Of a stretch of 64,000 nt of DNA, positions 39,002 to 45,175 are shown in pieces. The position numbers and the translations under genes were made by a program. A model generated the notes under the pieces. That model was not told the DNA's origin. It did no database searches and saw nothing but the letters and a program-made list of their open reading frames with translations. Source of the DNA: a phage. The stretch lies in NCBI GenBank assembly GCA_020279385.1, contig GCA_020279385.1_4762.1. The stretch is one strand, 5' to 3'. The first letter of the stretch is position 1, and each line of letters begins with the position of its first letter.

Positions 39002-39220
39002 TTATTTATATCGCTTTCTCTCGCGACGTTTTTTATCTTCTTCCTTGATAGAGTTAAATGCATCAAAAAGACACATGACACTAATAATAAACATAACCGT
39101 ATTTTCTACGATATCCCACGGCTTCGCATCAGTACAGATCCCCCAAACGGTAAGAAATGCAAATAAGGCAGAAGAGATCACAAGCATGATACTTGCTAAG
39201 ATATAAAAAGTCATTTTCAT
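39002..39220 (-). CDS. Small hydrophobic protein
   Basis: 72 aa. Confidence 0.4.
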   Translation of the reverse strand: MKMTFYILASIMLVISSALFAFLTVWGICTDAKPWDIVENTVMFIISVMCLFDAFNSIKEEDKKRRERKRYK

Positions 39221-39411
39221 GGTTTTACCTCAATTCTTCGATATTCATCACACATCCACGCAGTAAGCAAGAATCCCAACACATAAGCAACAAAATACGT
39301 TAATGCTTCTTCTGGTTCGGTGCTATGCGTCATCATCAGACTAGCGAGAAAGGTCTTAACAATTACATTTAAAATAATTAGCCACGCAAATAATTTCATC
39401 GTTTGCCCCAT
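39217..39411 (-). CDS. Small hydrophobic protein
   Basis: 64 aa. Confidence 0.4.
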   Translation of the reverse strand: MGQTMKLFAWLIILNVIVKTFLASLMMTHSTEPEEALTYFVAYVLGFLLTAWMCDEYRRIEVKP

Positions 39412-39635
39412 TTCGGTCGAGTCTTTTCAAACTTATACATTCCGTAACAATCTCGAATCATCCACGTAACAAGAGCACCAGTCAACACAGACAATACACA
39501 GAAGAAGTAAAACGGTCCGGTTGCATTATCAACATGAGCAAGCCAGGTAAAGAAAACACATGCTAAGAATGTAAAGATCATCATAAAGCACAAGAAAGCG
39601 AAATATTTTATACTACTCATAGCGCCACCATACAA
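39396..39635 (-). CDS. Small hydrophobic protein
   Basis: 79 aa. Confidence 0.4.
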   Translation of the reverse strand: MYGGAMSSIKYFAFLCFMMIFTFLACVFFTWLAHVDNATGPFYFFCVLSVLTGALVTWMIRDCYGMYKFEKTRPKWGKR

Positions 39636-39723
39636 AAGATCATAAGAAAACCCAACGCAATAAGAATTGCATCAAATTTAGTGAACTCCGGTCCACCTAT
39701 CAACATCATTCGTTCTATTTCGT

Positions 39724-39966
39724 TCATAGCGTACAAAGCCATTTAAAAGCACCACATAAAGCGAGCAGAATACTAGGTATAAACGAGACCATAACAAGTT
39801 TGCAAAAATCATCTAAGGTAACACCGGAATAGCTACCTACTGTAACAACACCGATCATCAGACACAGAAAGAAAACAAATGCAATCATAAACAAAGTATT
39901 GCTAAACAGTTTAGTGATCATTAGACACCCCACGACGATCAATTTCAAAAACTTTTTTATCATCAA
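39724..39966 (-). CDS. Small hydrophobic protein
   Basis: 80 aa; start uncertain. Confidence 0.4.
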   Translation of the reverse strand: MMIKKFLKLIVVGCLMITKLFSNTLFMIAFVFFLCLMIGVVTVGSYSGVTLDDFCKLVMVSFIPSILLALCGAFKWLCTL

Positions 39967-40114
39967 CGAAGCATGTCACAACTGCCTCGTTGACTTCCGC
40001 AAATTGTTGTGTCACCCACTTAAGGTCAGAGCGAAACAATGTTCTATTAATAACAAATGTTTTACCGCTCTTATCCTTACCCATAAATTTTGCTTTAACC
40101 ATATCCAATTCCAT
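39911..40114 (-). CDS. Hypothetical protein
   Basis: 67 aa. Confidence 0.4.
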   Translation of the reverse strand: MELDMVKAKFMGKDKSGKTFVINRTLFRSDLKWVTQQFAEVNEAVVTCFVDDKKVFEIDRRGVSNDH

Positions 40115-40123
40115 ATTATCACC

Positions 40124-40282
40124 TTATTTGCTAATCGCTAAACCCAATCCGAAGAGAGCACCCGATGCTACAGTATACCCGAAAGTTTCAAAGGCAGTAA
40201 AGATATCTAAGCCACCAGCTAACAGAGTTGCAGTAAACAGAGTACCAGCTACGAACATAAAAGTTTTACCGATGAATTTCAT
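40124..40282 (-). CDS. Small hydrophobic protein (52 aa)
   Basis: Promoter 40314-40342, SD GGAGAATCAAA, ATG 40282; MKFIGKTFMFVAGTLF...; below ORF-track cut-off. Confidence 0.35.
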   Translation of the reverse strand: MKFIGKTFMFVAGTLFTATLLAGGLDIFTAFETFGYTVASGALFGLGLAISK

Positions 40283-40348: not shown

Positions 40349-40726
40349 TTAAGAATATTTTACTTCGTCTACAATGTCTTTCATGACATTGATTTCCATT
40401 CCGGTCAGAACACGTTGGAACATGTGCTGCACATACGCTTTCAGGTATTCATTTGATGGCTTGCTATCGAAAGTCTTTTTAGTGTAGTAGTCATCACCGA
40501 AAGCTACTGTAATTATATTTTCGTCGTCGTTCCAAGCGATATAAGCAAATTTGCCGTTATCCCAGAAGCGAGCACTAATTGCTACTTTTGTTGAATCGAA
40601 TCCTACTTCGCTGTGAGATTCAAGAACTACTTGCGTGCCAGTTTCTTTATGAATGTAGTAGCGGGATACTAAGTCAAAGTTACGGGTGTAGTGACATTCG
40701 AATTTATCTTTAAACATCATCATCAT
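40349..40726 (-). CDS. Hypothetical protein
   Basis: 125 aa; promoter 40764-40792. Confidence 0.55.
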   Translation of the reverse strand: MMMMFKDKFECHYTRNFDLVSRYYIHKETGTQVVLESHSEVGFDSTKVAISARFWDNGKFAYIAWNDDENIITVAFGDDYYTKKTFDSKPSNEYLKAYVQHMFQRVLTGMEINVMKDIVDEVKYS

Positions 40727-40763: not shown

Positions 40764-40792
40764 ATTATGCTATAGTCGTTTATGGTTGTCAA
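40764..40792 (-). promoter_or_regulatory. Early promoter TTGACA-N17-CATAAT
   Basis: Directly downstream of terminator 40798-40828. Confidence 0.5.
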
Positions 40793-40797
40793 CAACT

Positions 40798-40828
40798 AAA
40801 AACAAAAAACCCCGAAAAATTTTCGGGG
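40798..40828 (-). terminator. Intrinsic terminator after 57B
   Basis: CCCCGAAAA-UU-UUUCGGGG hairpin plus UUUUUUGUUUUU. Confidence 0.65.
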
Positions 40829-40835
40829 TATAAAA

Positions 40836-41306
40836 TTACAGTTTGGTCGTCCACTCCAGGTCTAGATCTTCGACATACTCATGAGATCGGACAATCTCTA
40901 AATCGAACTCTAGGTCAGTGCCAAATTTACGCGCACCAACATCATAAGAAAGCGTGATATGCGGTACATATTCAGGATAATCCCACGTCGCACCTAAAGC
41001 AGTGCCGATATCGTGTCTGAATTGCATGTAGTCGCTTTCAAATGCCAGCACAAGCGCATTAGTACCGGATTGAGTTTCAAACACTTTCAGATGGCATAGA
41101 GAGCCTAAGAACTTCTCCCCTTCTTCTGGGATAAACGGAACATAGACACGAGAATATAAGATAGTGCTATGCAGTTTATCACGAGGAACGGCATTAGGCA
41201 GATCGTAGAACTCCTGCAATTTTTCAATGCGGTCTAGTGTATCCTCAGTGAATTTAACCGCCGCATATGTACCTTTAACGGATTCTCTAAACGGGGTCAT
41301 AATCAA
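40836..41306 (-). CDS. 57B: 2H phosphodiesterase, Acb1/gp57B-like (anti-CBASS candidate)
   Basis: 156 aa; two HxTx motifs (KLHSTILYS, PHITLSY); sits directly upstream of 57A as T4 57B does. Confidence 0.7.
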   Translation of the reverse strand: MIMTPFRESVKGTYAAVKFTEDTLDRIEKLQEFYDLPNAVPRDKLHSTILYSRVYVPFIPEEGEKFLGSLCHLKVFETQSGTNALVLAFESDYMQFRHDIGTALGATWDYPEYVPHITLSYDVGARKFGTDLEFDLEIVRSHEYVEDLDLEWTTKL

Positions 41307-41569
41307 GCCTCCGTGATCAGTTCTACTTCCTCTTCTGCGTCTTCCGCTGCTTTGTCTTTAGGGAGAAGTGCTTTCACTTCTTCGACAATAGCATCAAGGG
41401 AAACAGTGCCGTTTTCGTCTGGCTGAATACCCAGAATGCGTACCAGTTCCATCAATACACGCTCACGATCTTTCAGTTGGCCTTCTAAGAATGCGGCCTT
41501 TTCTTGAGTGTCAAACAGACGTACTTTCAGGACATTAATCATTTGTTCATGCTGATTGGACATATTCAC
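41303..41569 (-). CDS. 57A: Tail-fibre assembly chaperone gp57A
   Basis: 88 aa acidic coiled-coil protein at the 57A position; LDAIVEEVKAL resembles T4 gp57A. Confidence 0.75.
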   Translation of the reverse strand: MNMSNQHEQMINVLKVRLFDTQEKAAFLEGQLKDRERVLMELVRILGIQPDENGTVSLDAIVEEVKALLPKDKAAEDAEEEVELITEA

Positions 41570-41595: not shown

Positions 41596-42252
41596 TTAAA
41601 TGTTCGCGAGAATCGCGCTTTCAAATTCTTCTAATGTACCATTATTTATGATAATGGTTTCACCGTCAATAGGCAAAATTCCTTTTTCGGTGGAGTGAGT
41701 CGATACAATACCAGTATCACGCTGAATATGCAACACCTTAGCACCCATAGCACGCATGAGAGCAATTTCAATAGGCTGACGCACATCAACCACTACAAAA
41801 TACCCTTCTTCATTTTTGCGCTTCATAAACTCATTCACGAAGAGATTACACCAATAAAGCGGATTGATCAAGTTAACCATTATATCAGTACCGAGAGTGG
41901 TTAACATGAGACGAATAGACCAGACGTTATTATGTTTTTCGCCGATCTCATTAACGACCTTGTAAATCTCAGCCAGACGATCACAAGTAAAGGAACTACC
42001 GCCATACTTCGAATCTAGCATAAGCAGACACTGAATAAACCACTTATGCGCGGTATAGGTATCAATACCTAGATCGGCTTCTCTGTCACGCCCTAACCCG
42101 TCAAAGTCAAGATAAGTCAGACCTAAGTCTGGTTGACATTCGCATAAGATTTCTTTGATCGGTGCTGCCAGTTGATAACTATGTCCATCAATTATTAACG
42201 CGGCAGTGTCTTTTCCTACTCGCTTTTTACCACAAAGTGCAATCAATTTCAT
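41596..42252 (-). CDS. 1: dNMP kinase gp1
   Basis: MKLIALCGKKRVGKDT P-loop and colinearity with T4 gp1. Confidence 0.9.
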   Translation of the reverse strand: MKLIALCGKKRVGKDTAALIIDGHSYQLAAPIKEILCECQPDLGLTYLDFDGLGRDREADLGIDTYTAHKWFIQCLLMLDSKYGGSSFTCDRLAEIYKVVNEIGEKHNNVWSIRLMLTTLGTDIMVNLINPLYWCNLFVNEFMKRKNEEGYFVVVDVRQPIEIALMRAMGAKVLHIQRDTGIVSTHSTEKGILPIDGETIIINNGTLEEFESAILANI

Positions 42253-42267
42253 TATATAAGCCTCTTA

Positions 42268-42858
42268 TTACTTTCTAAAAGCAGGGTGCATAGCTTTAAT
42301 ACCTTCCACCCGTTGACGATCCGCCGCCTGAATTGCTGGGCGAGGAACGATCAGTTGACCATCACGTTCAATGCTCATTGTTTTAAAGGGAAGAATTGCA
42401 GTACACACCAGAGATTCATGCATATCATCGGTGTATGTTAACTCAAGTTCCCCCAATTGTGAACACCAACAACCATAAAAGTTAAAAGTGCACACAATGT
42501 TACGTCGTTCGTTGTCCATCATGTGAACTTGAACGGCTTCCGGCATTGAATCCTTCCACGCAGTGGAGTTACCGTTATTGTAGTCTACTATAGAAAGCAT
42601 CCATGTGTAAAGGTTTAGATAGCTTTCCAAATGCTCATCGACAATAAACCGGACTACCAACGGGTCAAACTCCACATGACTAGACGGATAATCAGCGACC
42701 GCCAAACCATATTGACCAGCAACTTGCTTAGTCGGTGGAATGGTTATAGCCGGGAGTGTAACACCTTGAGCATTTAAAGTAAAGCCTTTTGTTAGTTGTC
42801 CATCTGGAATATTGATCTGCCAGTTGCTGGGGTTAGCATAGTTAAAGAGATTAGACAT
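42268..42858 (-). CDS. 3: Tail completion/sheath stabiliser gp3 (by synteny)
   Basis: 196-aa ORF at the gene 3 position between gene 1 and gene 2; late-promoter-like TAATAAATA upstream. Confidence 0.6.
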   Translation of the reverse strand: MSNLFNYANPSNWQINIPDGQLTKGFTLNAQGVTLPAITIPPTKQVAGQYGLAVADYPSSHVEFDPLVVRFIVDEHLESYLNLYTWMLSIVDYNNGNSTAWKDSMPEAVQVHMMDNERRNIVCTFNFYGCWCSQLGELELTYTDDMHESLVCTAILPFKTMSIERDGQLIVPRPAIQAADRQRVEGIKAMHPAFRK

Positions 42859-43047: not shown

Positions 43048-43302
43048 ATGACAGAAGACATTTTGTTAAAACTCTATGATCGTCTGGATAACGAATTAGC
43101 AACATTGCGGGGTGAAGTTCTCTATTTGTCTAAATGCAATACAGATCTGCTTAAGCAGATTGCAGAAAGGGATGATCAAATAAAATCCCTTTCAGGTGCA
43201 TTACGTGATCGCGACAAGGCATTAGAGATTTTACAGCGTGTTACCAATAAGGAAGAATTAAAAGACTTCTTACATGGTTATGCTCATGCTATCGATCTAT
43301 AA
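43048..43302 (+). CDS. Hypothetical coiled-coil protein
   Basis: 84-aa plus-strand ORF with TAATAAATA late-promoter-like motif 27 nt upstream and terminator hairpin downstream. Confidence 0.5.
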   Translation: MTEDILLKLYDRLDNELATLRGEVLYLSKCNTDLLKQIAERDDQIKSLSGALRDRDKALEILQRVTNKEELKDFLHGYAHAIDL

Positions 43303-43305
43303 TAA

Positions 43306-43330
43306 AAAAGCCCGTCATTGACGGGCTTAA
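43306..43330. terminator. Bidirectional terminator between convergent genes
   Basis: AAGCCCGTCA-aT-GACGGGCTT hairpin, U-rich on both sides. Confidence 0.6.
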
Positions 43331-43332
43331 TT

Positions 43333-44361
43333 TTAATATGTATCAGCTAATTTAATTATGTTATCAAGTTCCGTGATTGGTAAAGTTTCTGTGTATCCAT
43401 CTTTCAACATGGATTTATCAACAACGCCACAATGATAAGTTCTCTTTATTTCCTTTTCAAGTTCCCACGGAATCCTGCCATCAACACTTTGTTTGACGTA
43501 AACAAGTTTGTGAACAAACTTAGATTTCTGCATATGTTGTTTCATTCTGGTTTCCGGTAATTCATTGGTTACACCAAACTTTATAAATTTATCATCTAAC
43601 GTCTGGATATAAAAATATCCCATCTCAGATGGACGATAGCCAGAAGAACTACATTTCGGACACCCTTTAGCGTTTCTGTTGAACGTACAATATCTTACAG
43701 AATTTTCTGCGTCATGTTTTGTACATTTAAGTTTTATCCATGAATTTGCAGTACCTATCCATTCACCATCGACACCTATATATTCATACCCTAACTTTTT
43801 ACATTTATCTTCTATTCTAGATAGTGCATCTTCCACGGGAACGACATATTCCGTCTTAAATTGTTCAGCCGCACATTTCTTACAACCACATGTACCATGA
43901 TTTTTAAAATCAAAGAACTTTGTATTCTTCCAAATATGGTCATGTTTCTTGCATCTAAGAATCATCTTAGTAACTTGTGATTTCCAGCCACCAACAAATC
44001 CCAAAAATTCATAATCAAGATCTTTACATTTTTCTTCAATGAATTTGGTTGCTTCCTCTTCTGTCATAACTCCCCTACATTGAGGGCAACCAACAATAAC
44101 CTTTTTAGCATAGAAACTATTACTGGAAACATCATAGACAGTTCCATGCTTATTGCATTGGATAACAGATCTAGTCAATTTTCCTTTCCATTCTCCAGAA
44201 AATCCTAAGAATGTATGGTCGACAAGTTTACACCTTTCAATAACTTTATCCGCAAATTCTCTAGGAGATTTTGTTACCTTGTTTACTCTGTATTCTATTT
44301 TTTCCGGTTGACGAAGATAATAAACGTGGGGATTGCTCCCCACGGAATTAATATTAAGCAT
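43333..44361 (-). CDS. Putative homing-endonuclease-like nuclease (three Zn-ribbon repeats + C-terminal GIY-YIG-like motif)
   Basis: 342 aa from ATG 44361 just after gene 2 stop; three about 45-aa repeats (GxWxG..CxKH..CxxC) and GYFYIQT...KFGVT; inserted between genes 3 and 2. Confidence 0.6.
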   Translation of the reverse strand: MLNINSVGSNPHVYYLRQPEKIEYRVNKVTKSPREFADKVIERCKLVDHTFLGFSGEWKGKLTRSVIQCNKHGTVYDVSSNSFYAKKVIVGCPQCRGVMTEEEATKFIEEKCKDLDYEFLGFVGGWKSQVTKMILRCKKHDHIWKNTKFFDFKNHGTCGCKKCAAEQFKTEYVVPVEDALSRIEDKCKKLGYEYIGVDGEWIGTANSWIKLKCTKHDAENSVRYCTFNRNAKGCPKCSSSGYRPSEMGYFYIQTLDDKFIKFGVTNELPETRMKQHMQKSKFVHKLVYVKQSVDGRIPWELEKEIKRTYHCGVVDKSMLKDGYTETLPITELDNIIKLADTY

Positions 44362-45175
44362 CCTTCCACACCTTCCTTGCATCATAGTTTTTACCTTTAG
44401 AAACAAATTTATATGTGTTAAGGTAGATAATATTGCTCCAGTCTTTCGGGCTAATCTCAACAAGTTTTGTTTTAATGTGTCCCGGAAGATATGCTTTGAT
44501 CATGTGGTCACTACCACGCATACCTTTTACATCGCTCCATTTGATTTTTAAGCGTGTTTTATTACTCAAGGTAGGAGTAGATGCATATTGCTTTAAAAGT
44601 GCCTCTAAAAACTGCTGACGGGCTTTAGGCGTTACATAGTGTAAGTTAAGACCCAGCATTACAGTATTACCCGCCTTTGTCTTAGAATCACCCAGACAAA
44701 TGATCAGCGGGAAAACATCCCAATATGGCAAAGTGTCTTTATACTTCGCATCATACATAAAGGTATAGATTCGACCTACTTGCGGTTTTACAATCTGGTG
44801 TCCCTTTATTCCCGCTTTTATTGTTTTAGTAAACCACTCCTGTGATTTTTCTTTAGGACGACTCTTTGATACAGCACGCATAGACGCACGAAAATCATTA
44901 ATCATCATCATTGCGCGTTGCTGCTTATTGAGACCCTTTGCACCTTTCCCTTTTAGTTTTTCAACTTCTATTGCTGTTTTAATTTCGCTTGCATAACGAG
45001 ACATACTTTTAGTGAAAGTCGCATAGGCTATTCCCTTAGAATCTGCAAATGCTTTAGCTGTCATTCCTTTGGCTTTTGCTTTCGCAAATTCTACACCCAA
45101 TTCGACCCACTGTTTAGACTTTCTTTTTTGGGGAGACGGCTTTTCGTCTTCTGTGATTATTTCAAATACGCTCAT
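44354..45175 (-). CDS. 2: DNA end-protector protein gp2 (by synteny and composition)
   Basis: 273-aa Lys-rich ORF at gene 2 position (T4 gp2 is 274 aa). Confidence 0.65.
   Translation of the reverse strand: MSVFEIITEDEKPSPQKRKSKQWVELGVEFAKAKAKGMTAKAFADSKGIAYATFTKSMSRYASEIKTAIEVEKLKGKGAKGLNKQQRAMMMINDFRASMRAVSKSRPKEKSQEWFTKTIKAGIKGHQIVKPQVGRIYTFMYDAKYKDTLPYWDVFPLIICLGDSKTKAGNTVMLGLNLHYVTPKARQQFLEALLKQYASTPTLSNKTRLKIKWSDVKGMRGSDHMIKAYLPGHIKTKLVEISPKDWSNIIYLNTYKFVSKGKNYDARKVWKDA

Follow-up and report, generated by a model that had tools for sequence, protein, structure and literature searches.

Acb1 is a phage nuclease that counters CBASS, an immune system whose signals are made by CD-NTases; it linearizes the signal before the effector can be activated (PMC9117128). 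T4-related phages degrade CBASS signals, and T4 Acb1, the product of gene 57B (NP_049750.1), is the founding anti-CBASS nuclease (Hobbs et al. 2022, PMC9117128). Its catalytic tetrad is formed by two HxT motifs, comprising H44, T46, H113 and T115 in T4 numbering, and the mutants H44A and H44A/H113A are catalytically inactive (PMC9117128). Four aromatic residues (Y12, W74, F107 and W147) stack on the bases of the ligand, and E141 touches adenine N6, which explains the enzyme's requirement for adenosine (PMC9117128). A C-terminal lid (residues 145–152), flexible in the apo crystal structure (PMC9117128), is needed for activity (10.1101/2025.08.21.671373).

Three further enzymes frame the comparison. 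The closest solved structure to the protein described here is Acb1 of Erwinia phage FBB1, available in the apo form (7T26) and with the 3'3'-cGAMP product (7T27); the phage belongs to another lineage. 2H PDE-9 of Burkholderia phage BCSR5 (9Q2G/9Q2Y) shares the 2H fold and the structural group of Acb1; it degrades 3'3'-cGAMP and spares 2'3'-c-di-AMP (10.1101/2025.08.21.671373). 2'3'-c-di-AMP is a further substrate of T4 Acb1, and its degradation sets off the Panoptes decoy system (10.1101/2025.08.21.671373). More remote is Escherichia coli LigT, of the 2'-5' RNA ligase superfamily, which has the 2H fold and two HxT/S motifs in common with these proteins but is larger and has no Acb1 lid.

The gene analysed here lies in a 64-kb stretch of phage DNA (the window). 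The 3 kb around it are 99.6% identical to Krischvirus RB49 (OZ035808) and 95–99% identical to 58 other records of the genus, and the window is Krischvirus, from an RB49/JSE-like T4-type coliphage. An RB49 isolate, vB_EcoM-G2494, was among the 57 phages of the lysate screen of Hobbs et al. (PMC9117128 supplement), and our literature search returned no searchable paper containing both 'RB49' and 'Acb1'. We assign the gene, with a probability of about 0.93, as the Krischvirus (RB49-type) orthologue of T4 gene 57B, encoding Acb1. The assignment follows from homology, fold, conservation of functional residues, synteny and purifying selection, each of which is described below. The protein is a clear, ordinary member of the already described Acb1 family.

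The acb1 reading frame and its start codon

The original prediction, made from the sequence alone, had placed a 156-residue Acb1-like 2H phosphodiesterase with two HxT motifs at 40836..41306. This minus-strand frame is real; according to the open reading frame list and the sequence it encodes 156 residues if started at a TTG codon, and both motifs, HSTI and HITL, lie within it. The figure of 156 holds for the TTG frame. The protein itself is most likely two residues shorter, judging from the signals around the start, with translation beginning at the ATG at 41300, so that the coding sequence of acb1 (gene 57B) spans 40836..41300 on the minus strand and comprises 154 codons and a TAA stop.

The minus strand reads GGAGGC-T-TGA-TT-ATG at this point, where TGA is the stop codon of the preceding gene, 57A. 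The Shine-Dalgarno box GGAGGC (41307..41312, minus strand), identified from the sequence, is embedded in the final codons of 57A. Spacing to GGAGG is 7 nt from the ATG at 41300 and 1 nt from the TTG at 41306, and the JSE and RB49 records both give a 57B coding sequence of 465 nt, matching the ATG start. We favour the ATG over the TTG because of this ribosome-binding-site spacing and these annotations. The TTG, rejected as a start for its proximity to the GGAGG box, also overlaps the 57A stop (TGA, 41305..41303).

Sequence family and predicted fold

The 57B protein has one above-threshold match in Pfam, to PF23474 (Anti-CBASS protein Acb1), which scores 174.4 bits (E=1.5e-51; cutoff 27) and extends over profile positions 1–143 of 144. 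A search of PDB sequences likewise gave a single match, to FBB1 Acb1 (7T26/7T27; E=1.8e-43, residues 10–153), with which the alignment shows 53% identity. tblastn recovers T4 57B (X03016; E=2e-36) with 46.8% identity. Aligned globally with the 152-residue T4 protein (NP_049750.1), the comparison proposed with the original prediction as its check, the sequence shows 48% identity over the full length; a lack of similarity to Acb1 is thus not at issue. UniRef names relatives 'Anti-CBASS protein Acb1', and all 64 database relatives carry PF23474. The statistical weight of the assignment lies in the full-length match to the family, as measured by the Pfam and 7T26 E-values, and not in the pair of HxT motifs: about 0.18 such motifs are expected by chance in 154 residues (P(≥2) ~0.015), which makes the pair only mildly unlikely.

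We next modelled the fold. Single-sequence AlphaFold gave an unusable model (pLDDT 37) and was replaced by a run on a 62-sequence alignment, which yielded a pLDDT of 91.6 and a pTM of 0.84. Low confidence in this AF2 model is confined to residues 1–5 and 151–154, the latter as would be expected of a flexible lid. A Foldseek search of the PDB places 7T26 first, with a target-normalized TM-score of 0.97 and an r.m.s.d. of 0.9 Å over 138 columns, followed by 7T27, then by 2H PDE-9 (9Q2Y/9Q2G; TM ~0.7) and by LigT and cellular 2H enzymes (~0.5). The 57B protein is accordingly predicted to adopt a compact 2H phosphoesterase fold like that in the FBB1 Acb1 crystal. Sequence identity is 16–18% to 2H PDE-9 and 11–13% to E. 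coli LigT. The lid is N-terminal in 2H PDE-9, whereas in the 57B protein, as in Acb1 proper, it is C-terminal. With the 174.4-bit PF23474 match, 53% identity to FBB1 Acb1 and a TM-score of 0.97, the proposed identity as an Acb1-like 2H phosphodiesterase is well supported.

The fold held in common with LigT raises the question of whether the protein could instead be a LigT-type RNA 2',3'-cyclic phosphodiesterase or 2'-5' RNA ligase that works on RNA ends, in tRNA repair for instance. Its PHROG match, phrog_755 (E=1e-54), is described as 'RNA ligase', several orthologues in GenBank and RefSeq are called 'RNA ligase' or 'RNA 2',3'-cyclic phosphodiesterase', and Pfam reports weak matches to 2_5_RNA_ligase2 and LigT_PEase. 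We regard this as very improbable. The two Pfam matches fall short of their cutoffs (PF13563, 19.4 bits against 27; PF02834, 14.1 against 23.3) where the Acb1 model scores 174, and the structural match to LigT (TM ~0.5, r.m.s.d. 6–7 Å) is far poorer than that to Acb1 (0.97, 0.9 Å). The Acb1-specific tryptophan of the C-terminal lid and the adenine-contacting glutamate are present. The phrog_755 description is a legacy superfamily label, older than the 2022 characterization of T4 57B (PMC9117128). The 57B protein shares the fold superfamily of LigT but lies outside the PF02834 and PF13563 families.

Active site and substrate contacts

Alignment to T4 Acb1 places every functional residue, the published residue numbers being in agreement with the T4 sequence. 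The catalytic tetrad is identical, T4 H44, T46, H113 and T115 corresponding to H44, T46, H114 and T116; the first motif, H44-S45-T46, is encoded at 41163..41171 and the second, H114-I115-T116, at 40953..40961 (both minus strand). Active-site substitution, which would have spoken against Acb1, is therefore nowhere seen in the alignment. The base-stacking residues correspond as Y12 to Y12, W74 to F74, F107 to Y108 and W147 to W150, so that all four positions remain aromatic, and T4 E141 corresponds to E144. The C-terminal lid, LEWTTKL (residues 148–154, encoded at 40839..40859 on the minus strand and including W150), aligns with LDWADDLK in T4 and LEWSDK in FBB1. Hence Y12, the adenine-contacting glutamate and the lid tryptophan are conserved with T4, and every residue shown to be important by Hobbs et al. 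2022 is either kept or conservatively changed (W to F, F to Y). The two proteins differ in length by two residues (154 in the 57B protein, 152 in T4), with one additional residue after G79 and two near position 130. The two-residue insertion, in the 127–131 loop before the last strand, also sets the 57B protein apart from FBB1 Acb1.

Across 62 aligned database relatives (31–79% identity), H44, T46, S50, H114, T116, L117 and Y119 are invariant (62/62). Y12 occurs in 61 of the 62 sequences, E144 in 56 and W150 in 47; position 74 is phenylalanine in 41 members and tryptophan in 21, and position 108 may be F, Y, H or W. At every conserved column of this alignment the 57B protein has the majority or an accepted residue.

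The two aromatic exchanges bear on whether the enzyme, though a true Acb1, might have a substrate range shifted from that of T4, sparing 2'3'-c-di-AMP, for example, and so giving no trigger to Panoptes, or cleaving additional signals. Substrate and product profiles do vary within the Acb1 structural group, with selectivity governed by the enzyme core (10.1101/2025.08.21.671373), and the 57B protein is only ~48% identical to T4 Acb1, with F74/Y108 in place of W74/F107 and the two-residue insertion. Because identity to the tested enzymes is only ~50%, the range could differ in detail. We nonetheless think a genuine shift unlikely. F74 and Y108 are also found in FBB1 Acb1, which has been crystallized, is active and cleaves 3'3'-cGAMP, and most family members (41/62) have phenylalanine at position 74. 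Hobbs et al. tested nine further Acb1 homologues, and every one cleaved 3'3'-cGAMP as well as cAAA (9/9; PMC9117128); no feature of the sequence indicates a specific change.

Gene order and expression signals

The position of acb1 in the genome is that of T4 57B. On the minus strand, gene 3 (tail completion; 42268..42858) is followed by gene 1 (dNMP kinase; 41596..42252, Pfam DNMK 230 bits), by 57A (tail-fibre chaperone; 41303..41569, Pfam GP57 27.4 bits, phrog_1002 E=4.7e-26) and by 57B. Gene 1 and 57A, both annotated as such in JSE and RB49, serve as syntenic anchors, and the order 3-1-57A-57B is common to the window, T4, JSE and RB49. The original prediction had rightly assigned the gene to the 57B slot beside 57A and gene 1. 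Its description of the slot as upstream of them holds in plus-strand coordinates only; transcription runs on the minus strand from gene 3 through gene 1 and 57A to 57B, which is the last gene of the string, as in T4. The TGA stop of 57A is 2 nt before the ATG of acb1.

An intrinsic terminator found in a terminator scan (40809..40829, minus strand) closes the 3-1-57A-57B string. It begins 6 nt past the acb1 stop and consists of a 9-bp G+C-rich stem and a 3-nt loop followed by TTTTTTGTTTT; the RNA fold has an energy of −14.5 kcal/mol (z = −3.2). Beyond it lies the best sigma70-like match of the region, TTGACA-17-CATAAT (11/12 positions; 40792..40764, minus strand). In the T4 record the 57B stop is likewise followed by a stem-loop and an early promoter, and ipI is the next gene, whereas here the downstream neighbour is an ORFan restricted to Krischvirus.

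The T4-type late promoter TATAAATA occurs four times in the whole window, no more than expected by chance, and none of the four is near 57A or 57B. A sigma70-like site within gene 1 (41669..41641, minus strand) is a consensus match only.

Selection and conservation

Comparison of acb1 with four relatives, each with 7–11 DNA differences, reveals a total of 34 codon differences, all synonymous (0 nonsynonymous), the comparisons being phylogenetically non-independent. A fifth, more distant metagenomic relative differs by 12 synonymous and 5 nonsynonymous codons. Such a pattern is what a functional, constrained gene would show. At the protein level, tblastn finds the 57B sequence at least 99% conserved in 56 phage records.

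These data bear on a further reading, in which linkage to 57A is all that has preserved the protein, now a decayed or non-catalytic relic or else a 'sponge' that only binds. We find this hardly credible. No residue of the catalytic tetrad is lost, and the family-invariant positions are all retained; the 34 synonymous against 0 nonsynonymous differences point to strong purifying selection, and the protein is at least 99% conserved across 56 records. The gene moreover has a good ribosome-binding site and a terminator dedicated to it.

Predicted activity

On analogy with the T4 and FBB1 enzymes, from which catalysis, substrate range and protection in vivo are inferred, the Krischvirus Acb1 would act as follows. 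An adenine-containing cyclic di- or trinucleotide CBASS signal (3'3'-cGAMP, cUA, cAAA or cAAG) would bind a U-shaped pocket lined by the stacking aromatics Y12, F74, Y108 and W150, where E144 would read adenine N6 and the C-terminal lid would shut over the ligand. The H44/T46/H114/T116 tetrad could then promote a metal-independent acid-base attack of the adenosine 2'-OH on the 3'-5' phosphodiester. Cleavage 3' of adenosine, via a 2',3'-cyclic phosphate intermediate, would linearize the signal, so that CBASS effectors would never be activated and the phage would escape abortive infection.

For the use of RB49-type coliphages in therapy and for their host range, this activity predicts resistance to CBASS signalling with adenine-containing cyclic di- and trinucleotides. 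The same activity may leave these phages sensitive to decoy systems that sense Acb1-type activity, such as Panoptes.

The neighbourhood of acb1

At 39911..40114 (minus strand), 0.7 kb downstream of acb1, is a dmd homologue (Pfam Dmd 58.6 bits, phrog_2102). Dmd is a phage antitoxin against RnlA/LsoA-type toxins, and in T4 its gene is 61.5, elsewhere in the genome than 57B. Since dmd is only 0.7 kb from acb1, two known counter-defence genes are near neighbours in this lineage. The region had been flagged in the original prediction as counter-defence territory, a description that dmd bears out in part; the intervening genes are ORFans with no assigned function, and ipI is absent.

The first of these genes, encoding 125 residues (40349..40726, minus strand; phrog_15253, function not assigned), occupies the T4 ipI slot right after the acb1 terminator and is preceded by the promoter-like site at 40792..40764. 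tblastn finds it in 59 records, all from Krischvirus and all at least 95% identical. Its sole Pfam match is sub-threshold, to Gp30.7 of T4 (16 bits), and the best PDB sequence match, to HLA chains at E=0.09, is at chance level. We consider it a candidate lineage-specific early or anti-defence gene. Between it and dmd is a 52-residue hydrophobic, membrane-like reading frame (40124..40282, minus strand; phrog_16462, no function assigned). Very small frames of 41–80 residues occur at 40124..40282 and 39002..39966 (minus strand), most of them strongly hydrophobic and membrane-like, and no family assignment was found for any of them. Within the locus, novelty could emerge only from the 125-residue ORFan and the 52-residue frame that precedes dmd.

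A second known anti-CBASS protein of T4, the cyclic-nucleotide sponge Acb2 (Vs.4), was sought by tblastn across the 64-kb window, with no match better than E=1.4. T4 keeps vs.4 in the vs.6-vs.8 neighbourhood, which, from the coordinate offset to the RB49 record, should fall inside the window; in RB49, nrdC.11 directly follows vs.6. As the window contains no Vs.4/Acb2 homologue, Acb1 is perhaps the only anti-CBASS factor of this phage. A more far-reaching proposal would combine these observations, with a Krischvirus Acb1 of altered spectrum (for example, sparing 2'3'-c-di-AMP) that is perhaps the sole anti-CBASS factor, and with the ORFan, the 52-residue frame and dmd forming a small anti-defence islet, peculiar to the lineage, that includes an undescribed inhibitor. 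We put this forward as speculation, with the odds well against it.

Annotation of orthologues and variable neighbours

The supposition that the function of the gene was probably known already proved right. RB49 and JSE both annotate it as 57B. Public labels of orthologues are inconsistent, and include 'RNA ligase', 'hypothetical protein', 'gp57B conserved hypothetical protein', 'putative RNA 2',3'-cyclic phosphodiesterase' and, rarely, 'anti-CBASS protein'. A tblastn search of the phage collection with the 57B protein returned 1476 records, one of which bears the last of these labels. The KFS-EC record (MH560358) has no RNA ligase or 57B feature under the 3-kb match, and acb1 is probably entered there as a 'hypothetical protein'. 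The evidence justifies renaming the orthologue records to anti-CBASS nuclease Acb1, a change of little importance beyond annotation.

Farther along, on the other side of gene 3, a 376-residue endonuclease-like frame (43333..44463, minus strand) has three CapR-homology repeats (PF21817) and matches phrog_681, 'endonuclease'. Here and in JSE it is situated between an ORF130w-like gene and gene 2, and RB49 (AY343333) and GoldenSnicker lack it there. The frame has the look of a mobile insertion of the homing-endonuclease type, varying among otherwise near-identical phages. Convergent with it is an 84-residue frame on the plus strand (43048..43302; phrog_17832), coiled-coil-like and with no function assigned. 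Between the two sits a perfect 9-bp G+C-rich hairpin (43308..43328) that receives a terminator score on both strands and is probably a bidirectional terminator.
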